A stretch of DNA of 64,000 bases. It comes from Candidatus Doudnabacteria bacterium. Lineage in GTDB: Bacteria; Patescibacteriota; Doudnabacteria; UBA920. The number at the start of each line of letters is the position of its first letter. Positions within the stretch are counted from its first letter, which is position 1. Location: the NCBI GenBank assembly GCA_016788665.1, contig JAEUSF010000002.1, forward strand, positions 73,387-137,386, given 5' to 3'. Below, piece by piece: positions 1 through 38,042 of the stretch. The notes beneath the pieces were generated by a model that was given only the letters and a program-made list of their open reading frames with translations, made no database searches and was not told the DNA's origin. Position numbers and translations under genes: made by a program.

Positions 1-546
1 AGTTTTAAGCAAAAACTACAATACCTATCTTCTGCAAGCTATTTTTTATCTGGTGTTGTGGTTTTACTAAACGCAGCTCTACCAATTTTCGTCCTCTTTA
101 CTGGTATGCGGCCTCTGGAAATGACCACCATGGACTTGCTGGCAATTTTTTTGCCTTACATGGTACTTACCATATATGTACTACAAGTTTCCACTAACTA
201 CTCAGTAAGTTTTCGGGCAATCGCTTTTGCTGTGTCCAGCTTCTGGATACAAGTTAAAGCCTTAAACGCCGTTATTTGTGGACAGAAAAGCAAATTCAGC
301 GTAACTTCCAAAAAAAAGCTGGAAGGAAACTTCCTTTCCGTAATCATCCCTCATCTGACTTATGTTTGCTTAGCCATCTGGTCAATTTACACAGGCATAA
401 GCCGTGAAGGATGGTCTGCTTCGGTAATGAGTAATGTAGCGTGGATATTTTTTAACCTAAGCATGTTCGCACCTTTCATAGCAGCAGCACTGCCCAAATT
501 TAACTTCTTTGAAAAACCTATAGAGCAGCTGAAAACCGCTGCCTAA
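1..546 (+). CDS. C-terminal fragment (5' end outside window) of a processive family-2 glycosyltransferase (cellulose synthase/PgaC-like) membrane domain
   Basis: Frame 1 is open from nt 1. Multi-TM C-terminus with an F-x-V-T-x-K motif (KFSVTSKKK) of the kind that follows QxxRW in processive GT2 enzymes. The next gene follows 12 nt downstream. Confidence 0.4.
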   Translation, partial: SFKQKLQYLSSASYFLSGVVVLLNAALPIFVLFTGMRPLEMTTMDLLAIFLPYMVLTIYVLQVSTNYSVSFRAIAFAVSSFWIQVKALNAVICGQKSKFSVTSKKKLEGNFLSVIIPHLTYVCLAIWSIYTGISREGWSASVMSNVAWIFFNLSMFAPFIAAALPKFNFFEKPIEQLKTAA

Positions 547-558
547 ATTTAATACCTT

Positions 559-2079
559 ATGCACGAAAAGTCTAACGCCTCAAAAGCAGCAAGCACGCAA
601 TTATACGACCTGATATTTTTAAGCCTCCTGATGATTTTAGCTACCGCAATTTCGGCTTACTTTCTCCTACACCAAAGCATACGCCTGGACGAGTCACAAA
701 GTCTCTGGCAAAGCAGTCGCTCCTTAAAAGGGCTTATAAAAACCATCTCCCAAGATGTACACATGCCTTTATATTCGGTACTCCTACATTTATGGCAGCG
801 CTTAGTAGGTAACTCAATAGAAACAGCTAGAATACCCTCGTTATTTTTCTTTCTGCTTTCTATACCTGCTTTATATTCATTAGGCAAGCAAGCCTTCCAA
901 AAAAATATCGCTCGCTTTGCCTGCTTACTTTTTTCACTATCCCCCTTTATAAGCTGGTACGGAAACGAAACAAGAATGTACAGCCTTCTTACCTTGCTGA
1001 CCATTTTAAACCAGATCAGTTTCTTAAAACTAATAAGCAGCCTACAAAATAACCAGAACCATAGAATACTTTGGGCTTATTTTAGTCTGACCACCATCTT
1101 AGGAATATACACGCATTATTTTTTTTGGCTGGTTTTAACAACTCAATTTTTTTATCTTCTACTGACACACAAAAATTTATTAAAAAAATACTTTAATACT
1201 TTTATACTGATGCTAGGAATAATTTTATGCTCATTTGTCCCCTGGGTTTTACAAGTATTAAAAGTTGGCTTCTTTTCCAACACCACACCTCTCATAAATC
1301 TTCCAACTTATCTAAATCTTTTTAATAGTTTTACTCAATTTATTTTTGGCTTTCAAGCAGAAAAAATAAATACAATCATACTGTCTTTATGGCCAATAAC
1401 AGTATTAATGCTGTTCTTTTACCTGCAAAAAAATAACCGTCTAGACAAAAACGCTTTATATTTTTTACTAACCGCTTTTTTACCTCCCTTACTTATTTTT
1501 CTTATCAGCATAACAATTCGCCCCATTTTTGTTACCAGATACTTTATCTTCACCGTGCCCAGTTTGTTTTTATTTCTTAGCTGGCTTATATATGCCTACA
1601 GTAAAACTGTCTCCTATTTGCTCAAAACAACATTTGTATCAGCCATGATTTGCACGCTCTACTTACAAAATGTTTTACCCAACGCTCCCATTAAAGAAAA
1701 CTATCGTGCAGCCGCCTCCTACTTATCCTCCCAGTCTTCAAACCAAGATCTAATTGCAATTTCCGCCCCCTTCACCATATACCCCATAGAGTACTACTAC
1801 CAAGGTCCGGCGAAACTCGTGACAATCCCTTCCTGGAACCGATACGAAATAGGTCCGGTGCCTGAATTCTCGTTGGAAAATTTAAACTCGGAAAGCAAAA
1901 ATTTTGAGAAAGTTTACCAAAAAGTCTGGCTTGTGCTTTCGTACGACCAAGGTGAGGAAGCAGAAATAAAAAAATATTTTGATGAAAAATATCATAAAGT
2001 CGATGAACTCGTAATTTCAAACGGCCTCCGTTTATATGCCTACAAGCTCAGATACGACCCCCCAGTTTCCATACAATAA
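559..2079 (+). CDS. Integral membrane glycosyltransferase, GT39/GT83 (PMT/ArnT-like) family
   Basis: 506 aa with about 11 predicted TM helices. A DE-containing first extracytoplasmic loop (RLDESQS) and a soluble C-terminal domain give ArnT/PMT-like topology. Confidence 0.5.
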   Translation: MHEKSNASKAASTQLYDLIFLSLLMILATAISAYFLLHQSIRLDESQSLWQSSRSLKGLIKTISQDVHMPLYSVLLHLWQRLVGNSIETARIPSLFFFLLSIPALYSLGKQAFQKNIARFACLLFSLSPFISWYGNETRMYSLLTLLTILNQISFLKLISSLQNNQNHRILWAYFSLTTILGIYTHYFFWLVLTTQFFYLLLTHKNLLKKYFNTFILMLGIILCSFVPWVLQVLKVGFFSNTTPLINLPTYLNLFNSFTQFIFGFQAEKINTIILSLWPITVLMLFFYLQKNNRLDKNALYFLLTAFLPPLLIFLISITIRPIFVTRYFIFTVPSLFLFLSWLIYAYSKTVSYLLKTTFVSAMICTLYLQNVLPNAPIKENYRAAASYLSSQSSNQDLIAISAPFTIYPIEYYYQGPAKLVTIPSWNRYEIGPVPEFSLENLNSESKNFEKVYQKVWLVLSYDQGEEAEIKKYFDEKYHKVDELVISNGLRLYAYKLRYDPPVSIQ

Positions 2080-2087
2080 AGACGCGG

Positions 2088-3425
2088 TTATTTTGACAAT
2101 TTTGCCAACCCTAATGCATATTCAGGCCAAAATACTCCCGGCCCTGGCCCACCGTTACAACTCCCATCACTTTCTCCGGGAGGCTTTATCCAAAGATATG
2201 CATCTATACGCTCCTTACCAGTATTTAATGTCGGAACATTTCCAAGTGCCCTGCCGGAAGGATTACACCATTCGGAACCCAAAGCACCAAGGCCGTTTCT
2301 ACCAGTATCAATTACAAAATGCTTTCCTCCCACATAACTAGAAATTTTTTGTCCATATTCTGCATTTAAGCCAGTTTCAATAAAATTTGAAACATTCAAG
2401 CTAAATCCGTCGGCAGACCCAATACCCGATCGCTTTAGTCTGTCCGCCATTTCACTCGCACTCACCCAATTTGGATGCCCCGCATCCAAATACACATTTG
2501 TTCCATATTTTGTTTTTAAAATTTCAACTGCTTTCTTTAAAATTTCATACCGGGTATTTTTCAGCTGAGCATCTAAACAATCCGAAAGCGCTAAAGCATC
2601 GGGCTCTAAAATTATAATCGATTTTCCGTTTAAACCACTTGAAAAATCTGTTACCCATTTTAAGTATTTTTCCGCACTAGAACTACCCCCTGCGGAAAAC
2701 CCACCACAGTCACGAATAGGTATATTGTAAATAACAAGTACCGGAATTTTATTTTCAGTCTTGGCAGCAGTAACGATTTTTTCAACGTCTGCCTTTATAT
2801 TTTTATTCCACTCCCCAAACCATACGGCGGTTGGCTGTTTTAACTTTTCCATATATTTTACATCTTGCCCCCTCTGAACTTTCCAACTACTCATAACCTC
2901 ATCTAACATAATGCGCTTGGGTTCATATAAGCCCGAATCACCAGTTCGCGCACTTACCAAACCAACGGCTGGGGAAATAGACACAAGTGCAGAGCTATTT
3001 TGATTTTTCATCTGCTGTAAACTTAAAGAACTTTCTGCCTCCCCTATTTTCTTACCTTCGTAATCATAAGCTATAAAATTAATCCTGTAGGGTCCCAAGC
3101 CTTTCCAATTCCAACCACTAACATCTACAATCGCTTCTTTATGAGGATAGTCATGATAGCTATTATACATTTGGTTTAACTGGCCTCCATCAACCTGCCA
3201 AAACATATGATAAGTTTCTACAACGCGCCCTTGAACAACAGCCTTAAAAGGCTGCTGACCACTAACCTGCGCCATACGAACTGGCCACCAAATCTCAAGA
3301 GACTGCCAATCTGCTTCGACTTCAAAATTACGAAGGCCTCCCAAAACACTACCACTTACTACTAATACAACGAGTATTTTCACTCCTAAGCCGCACCTAA
3401 AAACATAACGTAAAATATTTATCAT
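2088..3425 (-). CDS. Secreted glycoside hydrolase family 6 (endoglucanase/cellobiohydrolase-like) with an N-terminal extra domain
   Basis: Signal peptide or TM anchor at the N-terminus. GH6 signatures are present: IYNIPIRDCGG (catalytic Asp region), IIILEPDALA (EPDSL-like), DAGHPNWV and WIKPPGESDG near the C-terminus. Confidence 0.7.
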   Translation of the reverse strand: MINILRYVFRCGLGVKILVVLVVSGSVLGGLRNFEVEADWQSLEIWWPVRMAQVSGQQPFKAVVQGRVVETYHMFWQVDGGQLNQMYNSYHDYPHKEAIVDVSGWNWKGLGPYRINFIAYDYEGKKIGEAESSLSLQQMKNQNSSALVSISPAVGLVSARTGDSGLYEPKRIMLDEVMSSWKVQRGQDVKYMEKLKQPTAVWFGEWNKNIKADVEKIVTAAKTENKIPVLVIYNIPIRDCGGFSAGGSSSAEKYLKWVTDFSSGLNGKSIIILEPDALALSDCLDAQLKNTRYEILKKAVEILKTKYGTNVYLDAGHPNWVSASEMADRLKRSGIGSADGFSLNVSNFIETGLNAEYGQKISSYVGGKHFVIDTGRNGLGALGSEWCNPSGRALGNVPTLNTGKERIDAYLWIKPPGESDGSCNGGPGPGVFWPEYALGLAKLSK

Positions 3426-3688
3426 AAATAAAATGTATTACGAACCTCTTCTTAATTTTTTTATTAACACTACCCTCGTGTCCAAGTGTAACAAAACCAC
3501 AATTTTATAACCATAAAGAAGCTTGTCACAATTCGTTATTATGACTTAGTTGCTAGCATTAAAATTTTTCTCCCCTTAATTTTATTTATTTTGCTTAAAC
3601 AAAATCATAAACGTATAATTTCCCCAAAATAAACCCAGTTTCAAACTTAGTAACCGTGTGGTAAAATATAGTAACTTAATAAAATTCT

Positions 3689-4063
3689 ATGAAAAATATT
3701 CTGTACCATTTATTATTTTTAGTATTTATATCGCTCATAAGCGGGTTTGTTTTACTTGGTCAGGCAGGGCAACTAGAACTTAACCAGGCGCTCGCAGTAA
3801 GCGGGGGTTTGGTACTCTATGCTTTAGCAATGGTTTTTGTCGGAGAAACCAAAGAAACAGACCAGCGCCAAAGTAACTTTAAAAATGTTTCTGCTAAAAC
3901 AGGGCTCACTGCAGCAATAGCAGTCTTATGCTTAGGACTTATGTATCAAATGCTTTTTACCAACACAATTGACTGGTGGCTTATAGCAAGCTTGGTAGCT
4001 ATAAATTTAACAAAGCTTATAACGCTAATTTTTTTAAACACCAACTCTAAGAGCCAGGTTTAA
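3689..4063 (+). CDS. Small membrane protein, unknown function
   Basis: 124 aa with 3-4 hydrophobic helices. Extended -10 element TGGTAAAAT about 25 nt upstream. Confidence 0.3.
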   Translation: MKNILYHLLFLVFISLISGFVLLGQAGQLELNQALAVSGGLVLYALAMVFVGETKETDQRQSNFKNVSAKTGLTAAIAVLCLGLMYQMLFTNTIDWWLIASLVAINLTKLITLIFLNTNSKSQV

Positions 4064-5417
4064 TTACCGTTAAAGCATTTCCACCCTCCAAAACCACAAA
4101 GAATTTTTCATCTTCACAATCAAAATCAACAGCCTTGGAATGTAAATCCAAGGCTGTTTTAAAATTTAAAACTAACCCATTTTTCGCCCAAACTTGGAAT
4201 TCCTTATCTTGTTCGTTAGTCGCTAAAAATATCCACCCAGACCTTTCAAATATTCCATTTACACTTGTATTTATATCCTGGCTAAAATCAGACAGTAAAG
4301 GCATAAAATTCAAATTGTTAAAAAAGTACAGCTGTTCGTATGCCCCGGCTACCAGCCCTGTCCTGCCGAAATACAGCTTGTCTCCTGCCAAATACAAAGC
4401 ATTGCCGTGTAATATACCGCTTCCATTGGGAGAAAAATTCGAAACTTCAACAATATTCGCCGGGTCCGAAACATTTAGAACCCAAACTTGCTTAACAGAA
4501 GGCGTGGCCACGTAGGCATAATTTCCGCTAACTTTTATGCTATTTGCAGTAGTTCCAAGCTCAAAAGACCCTTCTGCCCTTGGTGCACTAGGGTCTGTAA
4601 CATCTATAATGTAAAATTCTCGACTCTGCGATATTTCAGTGCCCAAGTAAATTCTTAAATTAGAATAATATAAACTCCTACCCGACGCAGCGCTTCCCGT
4701 AACATAGCTATAAACTAAAAAGGGCTCAGAGGGGTTTGAAATATTTATTATTTGCAGCTGGCTAACTGTGCTCAAATTTACCACATACGCCAAATCACCC
4801 ACCACCTTCACCCCACCCAAGCCCGGACCCGTATTTATAGAAGCAACCATGTGCGGATTTTCGGGCACAGAAATATCTACCACAAAAAAATCAGCGGACT
4901 GCAAAGTAGAAGAGTCGGCAGTTATATACGCAAACTTACCTTTTACATCTATGCCCGTAGCTTTTTCTCCCGTACCTAGAAATATTTGCCCGGGCAAAAC
5001 CGTTGGACTAGTCCAATTTCCCTTGAGGCTCAACCCGCAAGCATCACCTTCCCTAAAAGCGTCTTTGTGTATGTACACAAAAAACATTTCTGTCACACCT
5101 TGAGGCCAGAACACCTGACTTACAACTTTTCGCGACCAATTATTTATATACTGGGCCGAAACATTAACCCGAAACACTTCTTTAATTATAGTTTTGTTTA
5201 TAACAGCATTAAATTCGTTTTCAATTTCTGCTTTAGCAGCCTCCAATTCCGCCTGAGCTAATATAACCGCCTGCATATGAAGCTCTGAACGAAGCGCTAA
5301 AGACTGGTTTAAAAAAACCAAAGAAAAAACCGAAGCTGAAACTCCGGCAAGTAAAAATAACCCAACTATAGCTTCCAAGGATGCAAACCCTATTTTTCTT
5401 ACAACAGGATTCGCCAT
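4047..5417 (-). CDS. Type IV pilin-like protein: prepilin N-terminus fused to an LVIVD-repeat (beta-propeller-like) domain
   Basis: N-terminus KIGFASLEAIVGLFLLAG is a class III signal (G/F cleavage site with E at +5). The body carries repeated hydrophobic-x-V-hydrophobic-N/D-hydrophobic-S/T-D/N-P-S/A motifs, for example AYVVNLS...ISNPSEP, FYIIDVTDPSAP and VWVLNVSDPANI. Confidence 0.5.
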   Translation of the reverse strand: MANPVVRKIGFASLEAIVGLFLLAGVSASVFSLVFLNQSLALRSELHMQAVILAQAELEAAKAEIENEFNAVINKTIIKEVFRVNVSAQYINNWSRKVVSQVFWPQGVTEMFFVYIHKDAFREGDACGLSLKGNWTSPTVLPGQIFLGTGEKATGIDVKGKFAYITADSSTLQSADFFVVDISVPENPHMVASINTGPGLGGVKVVGDLAYVVNLSTVSQLQIINISNPSEPFLVYSYVTGSAASGRSLYYSNLRIYLGTEISQSREFYIIDVTDPSAPRAEGSFELGTTANSIKVSGNYAYVATPSVKQVWVLNVSDPANIVEVSNFSPNGSGILHGNALYLAGDKLYFGRTGLVAGAYEQLYFFNNLNFMPLLSDFSQDINTSVNGIFERSGWIFLATNEQDKEFQVWAKNGLVLNFKTALDLHSKAVDFDCEDEKFFVVLEGGNALTVIKPGS

Positions 5418-5421
5418 AATT

Positions 5422-6159
5422 CTATTCTCCTATTATCTCAGCTTTCACCAAATACCTTTTTAAAGCGGTTCCTATGGGGTAAGAAGTTTGTAAGCTCAAA
5501 ATTTTTCGACCTTCCGTATTTTGTGACAATACGGTTACATCGTCTGAATCAACAACACGCGTCTCATAAACTTTATACACGTACTCATATCCTTGCCTGT
5601 CAGTTATATTTATATAGTCCCCAATTTTAATCTCAGGCAACCTAGCAAACACACTCTTGAAATTTCCTTTTTTATACAAAAAATCCGACGAGTGCCCAAA
5701 AATGTAAACATTTCCAGCCAGACCCGCTTCTGCTGTCCCCATATAATGAACAACTCCGTTTTCCAAATTTTCCTGTAAGATTTTTTCTTCAGTCGAAGTT
5801 GCGTAAACTATAGGAGCTTGTATATTTAGCGTTGGTATTGCCAATAAATCAGGCTGTCCTTTTGGCCTAATGTTTTTAATGGGTAAATTACTTTCGTCGT
5901 AAGTCAAAAACACCTTAGGCCAAATAAGCGCCTTTATTTTTTCAGCAAAGTAACTTAAATTTAAAACCACAAACCCTAAAAGAACCGTGGAAAAAAATAT
6001 TCCATAAGTCTTTTTCCAATTTCGAGGATTTGTTTTTTCAAACCACTTTTTTCTAACTTCCTGTTCCGACACAACAGAAACTTTCACACGGCTTCTCGGC
6101 AAACTTTTTACTTTTTTATTTGTTTTTTTTTCGCTCTGCTTCATACTAGTAAAAAACAC
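5422..6159 (-). CDS. Sortase-family transpeptidase homolog (Ser at the catalytic Cys position)
   Basis: N-terminal TM anchor and a sortase-fold pattern: VYIFGHSS (His motif), GDYINITDRQGYEYVYKV, and a TLxTC-like strand ILSLQTSYP followed by Arg (KRYLV). The Cys codon position reads tct (Ser) on the minus strand at 5482-5484. Confidence 0.6.
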   Translation of the reverse strand: MFFTSMKQSEKKTNKKVKSLPRSRVKVSVVSEQEVRKKWFEKTNPRNWKKTYGIFFSTVLLGFVVLNLSYFAEKIKALIWPKVFLTYDESNLPIKNIRPKGQPDLLAIPTLNIQAPIVYATSTEEKILQENLENGVVHYMGTAEAGLAGNVYIFGHSSDFLYKKGNFKSVFARLPEIKIGDYINITDRQGYEYVYKVYETRVVDSDDVTVLSQNTEGRKILSLQTSYPIGTALKRYLVKAEIIGE

Positions 6160-6189: not shown

Positions 6190-7437
6190 TTAGTCGTTGA
6201 ATTTTCTTCCAAACTTTCTGGCAGTTACAAACGAACCGGCCAAAACACCTAAATAGGCTAAAGCGGAAACAGGTCCCGTAACTGGCAAAGAGGTTGCCGC
6301 ACCTTTTACTTCGCCCACAGGCATGGGAACAGGGAGGGAATTTAGGTTTGCTGGCATACTAGTGCTTACGCCCGCAACCTGACCTGAGCTAGAACCACCA
6401 GAACCACCCGAAGGCGGAGTTGGCACTCCACTACCTCCAGAAGAAGGGGCAGGGCCACCGCCGCTTCCACCACCCGAACCGCCGCCGCCACTACCGCCGC
6501 CGGAAGGAGGAGTCAGACTGAAGTGCGCATTAGCTACTAAATTACCGGTTATAACAAAAGTACAGATAGGATTATTGCTGCCTATGCATGGACCGGAAGT
6601 CCAGGTGTCAGCAAAAGTTGAACCCGAGTCAGGAGTTGCGGTTAAAGTAACCTCTGTACCAGAAACATAAGTTTGAGAACAATCCTCGCCGCAGTTTATG
6701 CCTTCATCTGAACTATTAACAGTACCGGTACCGTCACCATTTTTAGTAACAGTTAAAGTATATTCCGGATTTTCCAAGTCATCTACAGTTACAGTACAAG
6801 TTTTTTCCTCACCGTTGGAAACTGTGGAATTACAGTCAGCAGAATATGAGTAAGCATAGCCTCCGTCTGAAACCAAAGTCACACCATAAGCACCAGAGTT
6901 TATATTGCTAGTCACCCCTGCTTCGGAACCGACAAAAGTTGTTAAAACTGGAGAGGTAGCGGTCAAATTTACAGTAAAATCTGGAGCTGCTTTAGTGCCA
7001 CTATTGTCATTGGTCACATTAACCACCACTTTAACTTTTCCAGGCTTTGAAGTGTTTGTAATAGTACAGGTAACGTCGTCACCAGAAGCCAAAGTTCCGC
7101 TGCAACCGCTATAACTTGCTTGGTATGCCGGCTCTTCGGTTTCGGTAATGTTAAAGCTACCTTCAATAGGGGTTAAAACTGTACCGGTTTCTTCACCAGG
7201 AAAGGTTTGCAAAAATATAGGCACGCCTGGCAAAGGAGGAATAACTACTGCGGTAATACTAAAGTTACCCGCAGTTTTACTGCCACCATTGTCATTTATA
7301 ACGTGCTTAATAACGGTAATCGTACCGTTTCCCAGAAGAGGAGCGTCGTCGGCTTTTACATGGCTAAAGTAAGCAATTTGAGAAATAATTGCTACCGAAA
7401 CAAACGTCTTGTATAAAAAAGATTTATATAAATTCAT
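6190..7437 (-). CDS. LPXTG-anchored surface protein with repeated Cna-B/prealbumin-like domains and a Gly/Ser-rich stalk
   Basis: Signal peptide at the N-terminus. Repeated T-C-T-(I/V)-T modules and a (GGS)n linker are present. The C-terminus LPVTG plus hydrophobic segment plus RKFGRKF is a classic sortase sorting signal. Confidence 0.7.
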   Translation of the reverse strand: MNLYKSFLYKTFVSVAIISQIAYFSHVKADDAPLLGNGTITVIKHVINDNGGSKTAGNFSITAVVIPPLPGVPIFLQTFPGEETGTVLTPIEGSFNITETEEPAYQASYSGCSGTLASGDDVTCTITNTSKPGKVKVVVNVTNDNSGTKAAPDFTVNLTATSPVLTTFVGSEAGVTSNINSGAYGVTLVSDGGYAYSYSADCNSTVSNGEEKTCTVTVDDLENPEYTLTVTKNGDGTGTVNSSDEGINCGEDCSQTYVSGTEVTLTATPDSGSTFADTWTSGPCIGSNNPICTFVITGNLVANAHFSLTPPSGGGSGGGGSGGGSGGGPAPSSGGSGVPTPPSGGSGGSSSGQVAGVSTSMPANLNSLPVPMPVGEVKGAATSLPVTGPVSALAYLGVLAGSFVTARKFGRKFND

Positions 7438-7500
7438 ATTGTTTATGCAAATAATTTTTTAAGTTTTTTATTTTCCCAATTATAACATATATTTAACATC

Positions 7501-7529
7501 TTGACAAGACCCCTTAAAATAGGTATAAT
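7501..7529 (+). promoter_or_regulatory. Perfect sigma70 consensus promoter TTGACA-17-TATAAT, followed by AGGAGG RBS at 7549-7554
   Basis: TTGACA at 7501-7506, a 17-nt spacer and TATAAT at 7524-7529. AGGAGG lies 8 nt before the ATG at 7563. Confidence 0.6.
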
Positions 7530-7562: not shown

Positions 7563-8033
7563 ATGAGGAAACTTGTTCTCTGTTTGTTTCTCACGGTCGC
7601 TGCAAACGCAGCTACCGTAAACATCTACCCCACGCTCGACTGCACCGTCGGAGGCACTTCGGCAGCCACAACAGGGCTGTGTGCAAATCCCAACGGTCCG
7701 ACCACAGTTGGGTTTGTTGTTGTAACCAACGACATGCTCAACCCCAGCGACCAGAACGACTGGGTCCAGGTCCTGGAGTTTCCGAATGCCGGTGGCGGCG
7801 TTGCCACCAACTTTCGACTCTACTCCGATCCGTTGACGTTTCCGAGCTTCGGCTCGGCGTCAACTACGGTGCCGTTTGCTACCCTATTTTCTGTATACAA
7901 CCCCGCGCAGGGGTTTGTGTACAACATCTACAACCCGCCTACCAACGGGGGCGGTAATGTTCCCGAGTCCGGCACCATGCTTATGGTTGCCGGAGGACTC
8001 GCAGGAATTGTTGCAGTCCGCCGAAAGGGCTGA
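7563..8033 (+). CDS. GC-rich secreted protein with a PEP-CTERM-like C-terminal sorting signal (VPESG-TM-RRKG)
   Basis: Signal peptide MRKLVLCLFLTVAANAA. C-terminus ...GNVPESGTMLMVAGGLAGIVAVRRKG. The ORF is about 58% GC against an AT-rich background. Confidence 0.55.
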   Translation: MRKLVLCLFLTVAANAATVNIYPTLDCTVGGTSAATTGLCANPNGPTTVGFVVVTNDMLNPSDQNDWVQVLEFPNAGGGVATNFRLYSDPLTFPSFGSASTTVPFATLFSVYNPAQGFVYNIYNPPTNGGGNVPESGTMLMVAGGLAGIVAVRRKG

Positions 8034-8046
8034 CGAAACAACAACC

Positions 8047-8090
8047 AAAAGGCCGACGAACCTACCAGTTCGCCGGCCTATTTTTTTATT
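8047..8090. terminator. Bidirectional intrinsic terminator between converging genes
   Basis: An A-run, an 11-bp GC-rich stem (GGCCGACGAAC / GTTCGCCGGCC with one mismatch) and a T7 run. Confidence 0.6.
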
Positions 8091-8099
8091 ATTTTTAAA

Positions 8100-8642
8100 C
8101 TATCTAGTTATACAAATAGGTCCTGTGCCAGCCAAAGCTGGTTCTACTGTCATTGCGCATACCGTAACCCTGCCACTTGTGTCTCTATACACAGAATAAC
8201 CGGTATCATAATCATCGTCCGTCGCCCACGATGCGGTTGTCGGAGTAGTGGTGCTCGGGTCAAATGGCATAGAAGTTATATAAGTAGGAACCAAACATTC
8301 AGCAATGTCGTAATACGACTGATTGGTTTTTTCACCCATACGTACTGCCGTTACCTCACTCACAGCAGAACTTGGTATGTCGGTACAGCCACTGCCTGGA
8401 AAAACACCTTTATTGTCTGCCACCCGCTGACCAATAGCGTTTAAAATTGCGTTAACATTACTGGTCCTCTGGGTGTTTCGGCTTTGAGCAAACTGCCTGG
8501 CAGGATTAATGGCAATTAAAACAATAACAGCCAAGACAGCTATCATGCCCATAACCACCAAAATTTCTATAAGCGTAAAACCTTTGTTTAACAAAGTGTA
8601 ATTTTTATTTTGCATAAATAAAATTAAATTATTAAATAGCAA
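8100..8642 (-). CDS. pilA: Type IV major pilin (PilA-like); probable true start at the Met 9 codons downstream (about 8615)
   Basis: MQNKNYTLLNKGFTLIEILVVMGMIAVLAVIV is a canonical prepilin leader (G|FTLIE) with a hydrophobic alpha1 helix. Cys pair in the C-terminal region. Confidence 0.75.
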   Translation of the reverse strand: MLFNNLILFMQNKNYTLLNKGFTLIEILVVMGMIAVLAVIVLIAINPARQFAQSRNTQRTSNVNAILNAIGQRVADNKGVFPGSGCTDIPSSAVSEVTAVRMGEKTNQSYYDIAECLVPTYITSMPFDPSTTTPTTASWATDDDYDTGYSVYRDTSGRVTVCAMTVEPALAGTGPICITR

Positions 8643-8684
8643 AAATTTATTTATGACGTGTCTAAAAAATACTGCATAAATTTT

Positions 8685-35963: not shown

Positions 35964-38042
35964 TTAATTCAGCCTAGAATCACTCCAGGACATTGGAGCT
36001 AAAATTGGTTTTTGAAAATCGTAAATATTTGCCGGAACAACCAAGCTGGAAGAACCCCTGTTGTTCAAAAATATTTCCCAAGACGGTACCGGCACCAAGC
36101 CCTGCTCATGAACAAAATATATTGTACTACCACTCTGCACCCAACTTCCCCACGGGTGTGAAGTATTTAAGTTGTTTATAATATAACCCGTACTAGGAAT
36201 ATTGTTATAGCCCACATTCAATACATTAGAGAATTTAAACCCAAACCCTGTAAAAATATGTGCCGAGGCAAAACCACTCTTTTGACCTCTATAAACAATA
36301 TATACTGTACCATTTTCAGAAATAAGCTGACCATTTGGATAAGTAGAAGAACCTAATACTCCACCATTTCCGCTTATTGTAAAGCTTGCTGTGGCGTTCC
36401 TGCCATAATTATCGCTCACCCTAACCTGAAAACTCGAGGACTGCGCATTTTGTGCAATGCCGGAAATAAATCCGCTTTGAGACAAAGACAACCCAACAGG
36501 CAACTGACCACTAACTACATAAAAATTATATGGTGCCGTACCGCCGTAAGCTTGCATCTGATAGCTATAGTACTGCCCCAAAGTTATAACAGGCAAAGTT
36601 GTATTGGAAAAGTTTAAAGTACCAGTATTGCCAGATCCAGAAACATTAACCATAACGGTTCCGCAAGCATAAGGACTATTTTGACACACTATTATAGCTG
36701 TATTTCCCTGCGTATTTCCGTAAACATACAAATTGCCGGCCGACAAGGATACCGATGCTACATAAGCGCTGCTATTAGATGATATATAGTAACTACCGTT
36801 GCCATAAATAGAAATATTTGCACTTTGCCCGGACGAAAGAGTTATATTGTTTTGGCTAAATGTTAAATTCTGTCCCCAACCCCCTCCGCTCACAGTTAAG
36901 TTAAGAGTTCCGCAAGTTGAGACGTTAGATGACTGGCATACTACCAGACTAGTAGAGCCCTGATTGTATGCCGTAACAGTAAGTTGATTGCCAGTTATAC
37001 TAACCGCCGCAATATATGAATTACTTCCACTGGAAATATAGTAACTTCCTGTGTAATTCTGAGAACCATAAATATAAACTGTAGTGCTCTGCCCGGCATT
37101 CATATTTAAACTACTTGGACTGAACCAAATATTACCGGAGTTAGAAGCGTTCACACTTACAAGCAAAGTTGCGCATGCATTGTTGTTATATTGGCAAACT
37201 ACCACATTTGCGCTGCCATTTCCTACTCCTCTTAAACTTAAAACATTCCCTGAAACCGTGGCCGAAACTACGTTATAATTGGAGTTTGAGGAAATATAGA
37301 ATGCCCCGCTATTTTGGTTATTGCTGTAAATGTTTATAGTGGAATTCTGATCCTGATTCAAATTTACTGTACTTTGACTAAACCACAAATTCCCATTTCC
37401 TTGCCCCGCATTTACCACAACATATATTGTATTACAAGAACCAGAAGTGTTATGACAAACATTTATAGTAGAACTACCGCTTTGACTGCCATACAAATTT
37501 AAAATTGATCCGGATACTGAAGCAGTAACAACCGAAGGATTACTGTTAGAAGAAATGTAATAAGAGGTGTTGTACCCATAGCCACTGCTACTTATAGAAA
37601 CCGCCAAACTTTGACCCACATTTAAAGTAGGATTTTGAGGACTAAACCATAAATTGCCCGAATTTCCGCAACCATAAAGACAACTGCCGACGCCTACAGA
37701 CACAGTATCAGAAGACTGGCTATTTACAGTCACATAAAACTGTTCCATACCCGAACCCAAATAAGTCGTAATATTCAAGCTGCCGTTATAGTCCGTCTGC
37801 CCTATTGGGTCAACAACAGTTGACCATAAGTTACTATTTTGAGCCTTAGCATACAACACAACCCTAGAATTAGAGTCACCATTACTAACAAAAACCTTAT
37901 AACTACCATAACCACCTTCTTGACTAACACTTAAAGAAGGCTTGCGACCGTAATTATAATACTGAGCGGAAGCTTCTGTCATTAAACCCATAGCCAGAAA
38001 ACAAACCGCGACCACACCTCCCAAAATTTTAATTGTTTTCAT
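35964..38042 (-). CDS. Secreted protein with about six tandem Big_2-like (bacterial Ig-like) repeats and a C-terminal domain
   Basis: Signal peptide at the N-terminus. About 80-aa repeats of the form NLWFSxxxxxLNxGQS..V.IxxS...YYISSNSN..VxxxSVSGN.L...G...GS..xxVC. The DNA-level tandem repeats span about 36200-37700. Confidence 0.6.
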   Translation of the reverse strand: MKTIKILGGVVAVCFLAMGLMTEASAQYYNYGRKPSLSVSQEGGYGSYKVFVSNGDSNSRVVLYAKAQNSNLWSTVVDPIGQTDYNGSLNITTYLGSGMEQFYVTVNSQSSDTVSVGVGSCLYGCGNSGNLWFSPQNPTLNVGQSLAVSISSSGYGYNTSYYISSNSNPSVVTASVSGSILNLYGSQSGSSTINVCHNTSGSCNTIYVVVNAGQGNGNLWFSQSTVNLNQDQNSTINIYSNNQNSGAFYISSNSNYNVVSATVSGNVLSLRGVGNGSANVVVCQYNNNACATLLVSVNASNSGNIWFSPSSLNMNAGQSTTVYIYGSQNYTGSYYISSGSNSYIAAVSITGNQLTVTAYNQGSTSLVVCQSSNVSTCGTLNLTVSGGGWGQNLTFSQNNITLSSGQSANISIYGNGSYYISSNSSAYVASVSLSAGNLYVYGNTQGNTAIIVCQNSPYACGTVMVNVSGSGNTGTLNFSNTTLPVITLGQYYSYQMQAYGGTAPYNFYVVSGQLPVGLSLSQSGFISGIAQNAQSSSFQVRVSDNYGRNATASFTISGNGGVLGSSTYPNGQLISENGTVYIVYRGQKSGFASAHIFTGFGFKFSNVLNVGYNNIPSTGYIINNLNTSHPWGSWVQSGSTIYFVHEQGLVPVPSWEIFLNNRGSSSLVVPANIYDFQKPILAPMSWSDSRLN

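Follow-up and report, generated by a model that had tools for sequence, protein, structure and literature searches.

The minus-strand gene at positions 4047..5417 of the window (the whole 64,000-nucleotide stretch of Candidatus Doudnabacteria DNA analyzed here) encodes a bimodular minor pilin, in which a pilin module with a predicted GspI/EpsI-like fold is followed by a seven-bladed LVIVD beta-propeller. The protein is probably processed by prepilin peptidase and incorporated as a core minor pilin into the tip complex of a type IV pilus, where its acidic propeller would serve as an adhesin, comparable with PilY1 and PilX2. The first-pass annotation had suggested a tip adhesin or large minor pilin, and this is still the best reading, adhesion being the presumed function of the propeller.

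Domain structure of the LVIVD pilin

The open reading frame encodes 456 amino acids (mature form ~48.6 kDa, pI 4.9), and its product is 100% identical to the NCBI MAG protein JNN11_01460 from Candidatus Doudnabacteria. The sequence begins with the leader peptide MANPVVRKIG (residues 1-10; 5388..5417, minus strand), which is short and basic/hydrophilic and has Gly at position -1, as expected of a class III signal; cleavage by prepilin peptidase is predicted between G10 and F11. The alpha-1 helix that follows (residues 11-67; 5217..5387, minus strand; AF2 pLDDT >90) starts with F(+1)ASLE(+5), in which the Glu is E15, and continues into the hydrophobic stretch AIVGLFLLAGVSASVFSLVFL, the arrangement of Glu +5 and hydrophobic alpha-1N typical of type IV pilins. 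This helix would be the pilin stalk and would pack in the filament core. Together with a four-stranded antiparallel sheet (residues 74-116; 5070..5198, minus strand), it forms the lollipop shape of a type IV pilin, probably a GspI/EpsI-type minor-pilin fold. The pilin module spans residues 11-~125, the linker residues ~117-133, and the propeller residues 134-455, a layout that fits the definition of a modular pilin by Raynaud et al. 2021: a pilin module, a short linker and a module whose use is not restricted to pili.

The propeller (4053..5018, minus strand) is modeled by AF2 with a pLDDT of 92.8 as a closed ring of four-stranded blades built from LVIVD repeats, with a single LVIVD-like strand in each blade (FFVVDIS, LQIINIS, FYIIDVT, VWVLNVS, LYFFNNL, FQVWAKN and LTVIKPG). 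Pfam LVIVD (PF08309 / IPR013211, the LVIVD repeat) matches the protein in three stretches with E=7e-22 (76.9 bits versus a gathering cutoff of 20.2) and also matches all 59 full-length homologues, so that the proposal of an LVIVD-repeat propeller is borne out both by the domain match and by the predicted seven-bladed fold. Conservation falls mainly on structural positions of the LVIVD type that recur from repeat to repeat. Searches with the full-length profile against solved structures gave marginal matches to YncE-type propellers (E~2e-3), and a Foldseek search of the propeller against the PDB returned generic propellers at no more than 14% identity and no match to the bimodular arrangement; matches of this kind give no clue to specificity. 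Likeness to propeller enzymes is weak, and was seen for the phosphotriesterase 5hrm (profile E=0.0086; also found by Foldseek) and the quinoprotein-like 4r5o (Foldseek). The propeller is acidic in 59/59 homologues (pI 4.05-5.45, net charge -5 to -28), which disfavors a DNA-binding propeller.

The protein has just two cysteines: Cys127 (5037..5039, minus strand) lies in the linker that leads from the pilin module to blade 1, and Cys434 (4116..4118, minus strand) lies in blade 7. Across the 59 homologues, the two alignment columns are both Cys in 32 sequences and neither is Cys in 27, with no mixed cases. Given this perfect covariation, we predict a Cys127-Cys434 disulfide that would staple the linker to the last blade, which in turn points to an extracytoplasmic location.

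The prepilin signature

The class III signal is supported by conservation across the family: E15 is invariant across the 59 full-length homologues, G10 is conserved in more than 90% of them (and invariant in a 15-sequence subset), and the G-x4-E motif is present in 64/80 genomic relatives. Recognition by Pfam N_methyl had been proposed by the first-pass annotation as a check on this signal, and formally the check went against it, as neither PF07963 (N_methyl) nor TIGR02532 matches the window protein at E<=1. PF07963 matches 7/59 homologues and TIGR02532 matches 2/31 homologue N-terminal modules. Among the same 31 modules, ComGE models match 16 (best E=1.7e-9) and PilV models 15, and GspI/XpsI models also find matches; the window protein itself reaches significance with none of the PilV, ComGE, GspI and XpsI sequence models. 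The N-terminal profile gave only marginal matches to solved structures (geopilin/PilA, E 0.08-0.8). A non-exhaustive search for a prepilin peptidase, made up of a six-frame scan of the 64-kb window for the GxGDxK motif and of Pfam on 20 further ORFs, found none. Despite the failure of the prepilin HMMs on the window sequence, we keep the class III reading, because the evidence from the family, the fold and the operon synteny described below outweighs that result.

A vacant slot in the type IV pilus operon

A type IV pilus operon lies on the same strand at 8100..12316 (minus strand; Pfam/NCBIfam). It encodes the PilB ATPase (11099-12316), the PilC platform protein (10015-11097), a GspH/ComGD-like pilin of 146 amino acids (9578-10018), a GspJ/ComGF-like pilin of 166 amino acids (9084-9584), a PilX/GspK-like protein of 132 amino acids that has no Glu +5 (8685-9083), and the major pilin of 180 amino acids (8100-8642), where the H, J and K class labels of the other minor pilins rest on weak NCBIfam matches (E 0.001-0.01). 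The LVIVD pilin gene is found 2.7 kb downstream of this operon, in a separate predicted transcription unit that it shares with the genes of a sortase and an LPXTG protein.

To get a comparative view, we used the 15-sequence alignment subset of the 59 homologues to find related loci, and compared 80 species-level loci. In 65/80 of these, a PilC gene precedes the LVIVD pilin gene on its own strand by no more than 1.4 kb (median gap 495 nt); among the loci with enough upstream DNA, only two are without it. The LVIVD pilin is inside the type IV pilus operon in 65 of the 71 loci that could be judged. When the window's pilins served as queries, 66/67 loci showed, in full or in part, the order PilB, PilC, 146-aa pilin, LVIVD pilin, 166-aa pilin, 132-aa protein, 180-aa pilin. 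Relatives of the window gene are thus encoded with PilB/PilC-type genes and other pilins, in a slot between the 146-aa and 166-aa pilin genes that in the window holds nothing; tblastn found no second LVIVD copy in the window. Minor-pilin genes are ordered gspH-I-J-K, fimU-pilV-W-X and comGD-E-F-G, and the operon place of the LVIVD pilin, after an H-like and before J-/K-like pilins, mirrors these orders.

The family is widespread. LVIVD pilins were found, among others, in Doudna-, Azam-, Lipton-, Brenner-, Taylor-, Terry- and Jorgensenbacteria, as well as in Wolfe-, Colwell-, Nomura-, Staskawicz-, Falkow- and Uhrbacteria and in Paceibacterota. When the 150 top-ranking representatives (50% identity) are considered, 85 match the LVIVD pilin from end to end.

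Association with a sortase cassette

Directly upstream of the LVIVD pilin gene, in a shared transcription unit, is a sortase gene (5422..6159, minus strand; Pfam Sortase E=5e-24, and above the cutoff of NCBIfam sortase_fam). The gap between the two genes is 4 nt, and the Shine-Dalgarno sequence AGGAG of the LVIVD pilin (5427..5431, minus strand), read 9 nt before its ATG, falls within the 3' end of the sortase gene, the stop codon of which is at 5422-5424; this placement suggests that translation of the pilin is coupled to that of the sortase. The first gene of the unit encodes an LPVTG-anchored surface protein of 415 amino acids (6190..7437, minus strand) with Pfam SpaA_2 prealbumin-like and InlB B-repeat matches and the C terminus ...SLPVTGPVSALAYLGVLAGSFVTARKFGRKFND. 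Consensus scans placed a putative sigma-70-like promoter upstream of this gene (TTGTCA-17-TATAAT with TG, 11/12; 7479..7507, minus strand) and a strong intrinsic-terminator-like hairpin (8050..8079, minus strand; stem of 13 bp) behind the major pilin gene, and the hairpin would set the sortase unit apart from the pilus operon.

The trio of LPXTG protein, sortase and LVIVD pilin recurs in five loci: the window, L001, L002 (= L007), L008 and L009. A tblastn search with the window's sortase (E<=1e-5, a threshold that divergent sortases could escape) found no sortase beside the 65 in-operon loci, and linkage to a sortase thus appears to be limited to one small clade. In a further locus, L010, the LVIVD pilin gene directly follows the major pilin gene, with no sortase cassette, and its gene order looks like an intermediate between the in-operon slot and the displaced gene of the window. 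A neighbor-joining tree, which carries no support values, tentatively groups the post-sortase LVIVD pilins as a monophyletic clade, and places the second copies that L002, L008 and L009 hold inside the operon, again tentatively, on a divergent long branch. The first-pass annotation had located the gene outside the main pilus operon and near the sortase/LPXTG pair; both statements stand, and the comparison refines them: the usual place of the gene is a conserved operon slot, from which it was displaced in this lineage.

The C terminus of the LVIVD pilin (...ALTVIKPGS; ...GGNALTVIKPGS) has no LPXTG motif, hydrophobic segment or basic tail. As this C-terminal sorting signal is absent, we rejected the LVIVD pilin as a sortase substrate.

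Comparison with known propeller and modular pilins

Modular pilins of the type IV class include two from Streptococcus sanguinis, PilB, which carries a vWA module, and PilC, which carries a lectin module (Raynaud et al. 2021, PNAS), and such pilins have been proposed to be tip adhesins (PMC8179133). They share with the LVIVD pilin a class III signal, a small pilin module, a short linker and a bulky C-terminal module, although the latter is a vWA or lectin module in S. sanguinis and a seven-bladed propeller here. The pilin+LVIVD architecture is already catalogued and is common among CPR bacteria: Dataset S1 of Raynaud et al. 2021 contains at least 30 IPR012902 + IPR013211 proteins, in which the repeat occurs 1, 2, 4, 5, 6 or 13 times, and the text mentions an example from Candidatus Falkowbacteria, calling the LVIVD motif 'of unknown function' and giving no fold, operon position or pilin class. 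The window protein would escape the InterPro query of that study, because IPR012902-type models do not match it.

A functional precedent comes from TM7x (Nanosynbacter lyticus, Saccharibacteria), in which the minor pilin PilX2 of the thin T4P-2 pilus carries a heptabladed propeller; its deletion halves host binding but leaves filaments in place, and the protein is dispensable for filament extrusion and competence (PMC11623550). PilX2 is a candidate tip adhesin with a non-canonical signal that is missed by software, no PilD signal being predicted (PMC11623550). Unlike the LVIVD pilin, for which no RCC1 match was found at E<=1, the PilX2 propeller is described as RCC1-type (the two were compared by description), and the phylum differs as well, LVIVD pilins coming from Doudnabacteria and other non-Saccharibacteria CPR.

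In type IVa pili of Pseudomonas, Neisseria and Myxococcus, the PilY1/PilC protein places a seven-bladed propeller at the tip along with core minor pilins, and is involved in priming and adhesion (PMC8179133, PMC11623550). PilY1 lacks the class III signal and the alpha-1 helix of a pilin and, not being one itself, attaches to minor pilins by non-covalent docking; its propeller is of the IPR008707/PF05567 family, whereas the LVIVD propeller is covalently fused to a pilin of probable GspI/PilV class. The PilY1-family Pfam model (PF05567) does not match the window protein at E<=1. The LVIVD pilin is therefore not a member of the PilY1/PilC family, and the likeness is functional only. The core minor pilins GspI/EpsI/XcpV (minor pseudopilin I of the T2SS), PilV and ComGE, in turn, have ~100-130 amino acids and no extra domain, to which the LVIVD pilin adds a propeller of 320 amino acids.

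Proposed role and alternative explanations

We propose that the precursor would enter the membrane through its class III signal, and that a prepilin peptidase would cut after Gly10 and methylate Phe11. The pilin module, which its fold and operon position place in a probable GspI/PilV/ComGE class, would then join the 146-aa, 166-aa and 132-aa minor pilins to form the priming complex, and this complex would come to lie at the tip once PilB/PilC polymerized the 180-aa major pilin underneath. The predicted ~36 kDa propeller, rigid, disulfide-stapled and acidic, is probably too bulky for the filament body, which argues for display at the tip, where it may bind a surface ligand (a glycan or protein) on a host, partner cell or substrate. 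One polypeptide would in this way do the job of PilY1 plus a minor pilin in Proteobacteria, or of PilX2 in Saccharibacteria. Comparison among loci indicates that the gene, which in most CPR genomes comes second among the minor-pilin genes that follow pilC, moved to the operon end in this lineage, and that an LPXTG and sortase cassette then cut it off from the operon; it is now apparently co-transcribed and translationally coupled with that cassette.

A tip or priming subunit that serves chiefly another purpose than cell adhesion, either priming and stabilization of pilus assembly in the manner of PilY1 or capture of DNA or another nutrient for uptake, as in competence pili, is an unlikely alternative. 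Nucleotide synthesis is missing from CPR bacteria, for which DNA uptake via type IV pili has been suggested, and this would suit a capture role; the many ComGE matches among homologue N-terminal modules recall competence pilins, and near-universal membership in the core operon, rather than accessory status, fits a role in assembly. Acidic propellers are nevertheless unfavorable for bulk DNA binding, and PilX2 of TM7x is needed for host binding but for neither extrusion nor competence (PMC11623550); moreover, priming and adhesion are compatible with each other. That the propeller is an enzyme delivered on the pilus, such as a hydrolase acting on host surface polymers, rather than a binding module, is hardly probable. 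Peptidase modules are among the modular pilins listed by Raynaud et al., and there is the faint resemblance to 5hrm and 4r5o, but this amounts to generic propeller similarity at 10-12% identity, catalytic-family HMMs do not match the LVIVD pilin at E<=1, and the pattern of conservation is mostly structural.

The genomic setting of the window gene could also suggest that the protein never enters a pilus. It might be a membrane-anchored surface propeller with an uncleaved signal-anchor helix, as its location within a sortase/surface-protein unit and the missing prepilin HMM matches would allow; the analogous PilX2 likewise has no predicted PilD signal. We consider this very unlikely, since a plain anchor explains neither the invariant Glu +5 and conserved Gly -1, nor the folded, probably GspI-type module between helix and propeller, nor the fixed place between minor pilin genes. 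Least probable of all is a functional tie to the sortase instead of the pilus, whether as a substrate of this enzyme or in partnership with the LPXTG protein. The 4-nt gap, the Shine-Dalgarno region shared with the sortase gene and the recurrence of the trio speak for such a tie, but the protein carries no sorting signal, the linkage is confined to few loci against 65 in-operon loci with no sortase detected by tblastn, and L010 has the gene at the operon end with no cassette. A processed core minor pilin with an adhesive propeller at the pilus tip accordingly remains the preferred reading.

Implications for CPR pili

Nothing is overturned by these results, as modular pilins, including pilin+LVIVD proteins, and the TM7x propeller pilin have already been described. 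In annotation terms, what had been a 'hypothetical protein' can now be named as the probable GspI-class minor pilin that the adjacent pilus operon lacks. A broader reading, which is possible but on balance doubtful, is that the LVIVD pilin is the universal GspI-class core pilin of most non-Saccharibacteria CPR pili, combining the PilV and PilY1 roles in one chain as the primary host-recognition determinant, and that in the Doudnabacteria lineage of the window it has been rewired with a sortase-anchored protein into a single adhesion regulon. If so, pilus-tip and cell-wall adhesins would be made together in that lineage.

CPR/Patescibacteria are ultrasmall and live attached to other microbes, and what is known of their host recognition and attachment comes largely from a few cultivated Saccharibacteria. 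As the LVIVD-pilin family is large and diverse, variation of the propeller surface could be mined for host specificity, and a propeller-bearing minor pilin in a fixed operon slot across dozens of CPR lineages is an obvious candidate for the host-binding tip.

Architecture and predicted prepilin signal of the LVIVD pilin

The LVIVD pilin is encoded by a single open reading frame (positions 4047-5417, minus strand; 456 aa) that coincides exactly with the feature marked in the first-pass annotation, and all of the sequence strings quoted there are found in its product. Its Shine-Dalgarno sequence (AGGAG, 9 nt before the ATG) falls within the last codons of the sortase gene, the stop codon of which (5422-5424) leaves a gap of 4 nt. 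An identical sequence is already recorded as a 'hypothetical protein' in a Candidatus Doudnabacteria MAG. A Pfam search confirmed the proposed LVIVD repeats (PF08309, E=7.2e-22, 76.9 bits versus a cutoff of 20.2) and gave a weak match to the generic Beta_propel family. No other Pfam family, N_methyl included, matched at E<=1, PilY1 and RCC1 gave no Pfam match, and the NCBIfam scan gave no TIGR02532 match.

An AlphaFold2 model built from 59 full-length homologues was confident (mean pLDDT 92.8, pTM 0.87). In it, a 57-residue helix (residues 11-67) leads into a sheet of four antiparallel strands (74-116); a short helix and a linker come next, and then 28 strands (134-455), thus the seven four-stranded blades of the beta-propeller that had been proposed from the repeats. 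Only two cysteines occur in the protein, one in the linker (C127) and one in blade 7 (C434); in the 59 homologues these columns hold a Cys pair in 32, neither in 27 and a mixed state in none. At the sequence level, this covariation is the signature of a predicted disulfide stapling the linker to the last blade, a pattern that would fit a secreted, rigid two-module protein.

The N-terminus had also been read as a class III signal peptide. Curated HMMs (N_methyl, TIGR02532) did not recover this signal from the single sequence, but conservation across the family did: among the 59 homologues (27-54% identity), Gly10 at position -1 is more than 90% conserved, and no more than five columns, Glu15 at +5 among them, are invariant. 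Homologue N-termini follow the pattern G-[QF]-[ST]-x-[LI]-E-[ILV]-[LIM]-[IV]-A. N_methyl matched seven of the 59. For the 31 N-terminal modules of homologues, the ComGE model matched 16 (best E=1.7e-9), PilV (TIGR02523) 15, and GspI/XpsI models a few; JGI annotates one homologue as 'pseudopilin PulG'. The G-x4-E motif plus a hydrophobic stretch was present in 64 of 80 genomic relatives, with the predicted +1 residue being Gln in 28 (GQSTLE, Q at +1) and Phe in 23. Gln at +1 is unusual in class III signal peptides and may be the reason that standard prepilin models often miss LVIVD pilins. A post hoc class III-type regular expression, applied to all six frames of the 64-kb window, gave four matches against 0.2 expected, namely the LVIVD pilin and three pilins of the pilus operon.

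A fixed position in CPR pilus operons

The strongest evidence for pilus membership of the LVIVD pilin family is genomic context. In individual look-ups, homologues lie within type IV pilus operons, with T2SSF (PilC) on one side and small N_methyl pilins on the other. Scanning a single genome for each species, we obtained 80 loci from many CPR lineages, of which 65 had a same-strand PilC ending at most 1.4 kb upstream of the LVIVD pilin gene. The median gap was 495 nt, that is, one small pilin gene, and in nine loci the gene abuts PilC. A contig end interrupts nine of the remaining loci, and only two loci with ample DNA upstream had no PilC. Using tblastn with the window's own proteins as queries, we found the order PilB, PilC, pil146 (146-aa pilin), LVIVD pilin, pil166 (166-aa pilin), p132 (132-aa PilX/GspK-like protein) and pil180 (180-aa major pilin), whole or as a subset, in 66 of 67 loci.

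Minor-pilin genes are known in the orders gspH-I-J-K, fimU-pilV-W-X and comGD-E-F-G. The operon order mirrors these and fits both the probable GspI-class fold of the LVIVD pilin's module and its neighbors' weak resemblance to ComGD/ComGE, ComGF and E5-less PilX/GspK subunits. The fourth minor-pilin position is occupied by p132 (8685-9083, minus strand), for which Pfam and NCBIfam gave no family match. In p132 a hydrophobic stretch comes right after a Gly (SPG, then YIMVTSVIMAS), and Glu is absent at +5, a feature typical of GspK/PilX-type subunits.

The family is large: a profile search returned 11,624 representatives (50% identity) at E<=1e-30, with giant multi-propeller LVIVD proteins counted among them. 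Of the best 150, 85 matched end to end (about 440-725 aa). The giants are common (2,000-6,900 aa, 9-26 matched stretches; P0121-P0126 and others), and in L003 (1-6259) the gene for one of them directly precedes the pilus operon. In P0124 (1,998 aa) and P0251 (1,295 aa) a complete pilin-propeller unit comes first and further domains follow.

A probable relocation into a sortase unit

The window's operon runs from PilB (11099-12316) through PilC, pil146, pil166 and p132 to the major pilin (8100-8642). No gene lies between pil146 and pil166 and no second LVIVD copy occurs within the 64 kb, leaving the displaced LVIVD pilin as the only candidate I-class minor pilin here. The major pilin is followed by a strong terminator-like hairpin (8079-8050), a small plus-strand ORF, a promoter match (11 of 12; 7507-7479; like the hairpin, from a consensus scan only), an LPVTG protein, the sortase and the LVIVD pilin, in line with the earlier placement outside the operon and near the sortase/LPXTG pair.

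The same LPXTG protein-sortase-LVIVD pilin trio is found in the closest relatives, L001 (54% identity) and L002, L008 and L009 (44-45%). In the latter three, the canonical slot is still occupied by an additional, divergent LVIVD pilin (L002 3530-4984; L008 ~1982-3440; L009 ~2062-3530; N-terminus GQST[IV]E), so that these sister-clade genomes have two, one in the operon and one after the sortase. L010 (36% identity) lacks the sortase cassette, and its LVIVD pilin gene directly follows the major pilin. Most simply, the gene would first have moved from slot 2 to the end of the operon, and the sortase cassette would have been inserted afterward. This history is compatible with a crude neighbor-joining tree, in which the post-sortase copy is nearer to other genomes' in-operon genes than the resident in-operon copy is. 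A 124-aa multi-pass membrane protein with no family assignment (3689-4063, plus strand) converges on the LVIVD pilin with a 17-nt overlap at its 3' end; its gene is kept beside the LVIVD pilin in L001 and lies close by on the downstream side in L010, with one gene between.

Other genes near the operon and in the window

In this monoderm CPR genome, the pilus operon is flanked by two small ORFs with PEP-CTERM-like C-termini, at 7563-8033 (plus strand, GC 0.565, ...VPESGTMLMVAGGLAGIVAVRRKG) and 12497-13156 (minus strand, GC 0.583, ...TPEPATFFLVGAMLVAAGLAKAKGGVV), versus a GC of 0.36-0.41 in neighboring genes. Both are kept in L001 at 78-87% amino acid identity, far above the 54% of the LVIVD pilin. 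For the first, the promoter scan gave a perfect match (TTGACA-17-TATAAT); the second has only two relatives among 5.8 billion proteins, and no exosortase was found among the window ORFs scanned. An 826-aa protein with no Pfam match lies directly upstream of PilB (13579-16059, minus strand), as does its 837-aa counterpart in L001.

Beside the LVIVD pilin, region 58-3425 includes a 506-aa PMT_2-like membrane protein (559-2079) and a GH6 glycoside hydrolase (2088-3425, E=5e-59). The matching L001 neighborhood (11968-17638) extends to a cellulose-synthase-like GT2 and a GH8, which suggests a beta-glucan synthesis/processing cluster beside adhesion genes. Far from the operon, a 692-aa protein (35964-38042, minus strand) matching T2SS-T3SS_pil_N (pilus formation protein N-terminal region, E=1e-10) and DUF7076 may be a further surface protein related to pili or secretion.

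Proposed mode of action and known counterparts

Architecture, fold and operon membership of the family support the first-pass reading of a large minor pilin, with tip display and ligand binding as proposed steps. A prepilin peptidase encoded elsewhere would cleave the protein after G10, and the alpha-1 helix would join the H-, J- and K-like subunits in a priming complex of minor pilins that becomes the pilus tip. There the ~36-kDa propeller would be displayed, because a bulky, rigidly attached module cannot fit along the filament, an argument already made for modular pilins in general (PMC8179133), and could bind a ligand carried by a host or partner cell. All 59 homologues have an acidic propeller (pI 4.05-5.45, net charge -5 to -28), a property that speaks against DNA being its bulk ligand.

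Among experimentally studied proteins, the best analogue is PilX2 of the Saccharibacteria member TM7x. This CPR minor pilin combines a heptabladed RCC1-type propeller with a signal unrecognized by software, and its deletion halved host binding and left filaments and competence intact (PMC11623550). PilY1 of Proteobacteria is a functional analogue, although itself no pilin and of a different propeller family. Modular pilins were defined by Raynaud et al. (2021), whose Dataset S1 contains at least 30 proteins in which IPR012902 precedes 1-13 copies of IPR013211, the LVIVD repeat, and whose text mentions a Candidatus Falkowbacteria protein with this motif 'of unknown function' (PMC8179133). The repeat was defined computationally in 2004 from archaeal and bacterial surface proteins (PMC2447325); a search of the literature turned up no characterized function for it. 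The combination of pilin and LVIVD repeats is thus already known, and the LVIVD pilin is no surprise to specialists. We found no description in the literature of the probable GspI-class nature of the pilin module, its fixed operon slot across many CPR lineages, or its rewiring into a sortase unit in one lineage. The evidence supports placing the LVIVD pilin among the modular minor pilins, with a propeller as its extra module, and makes it a good candidate adhesin, a useful re-annotation of what had been a 'hypothetical protein'.
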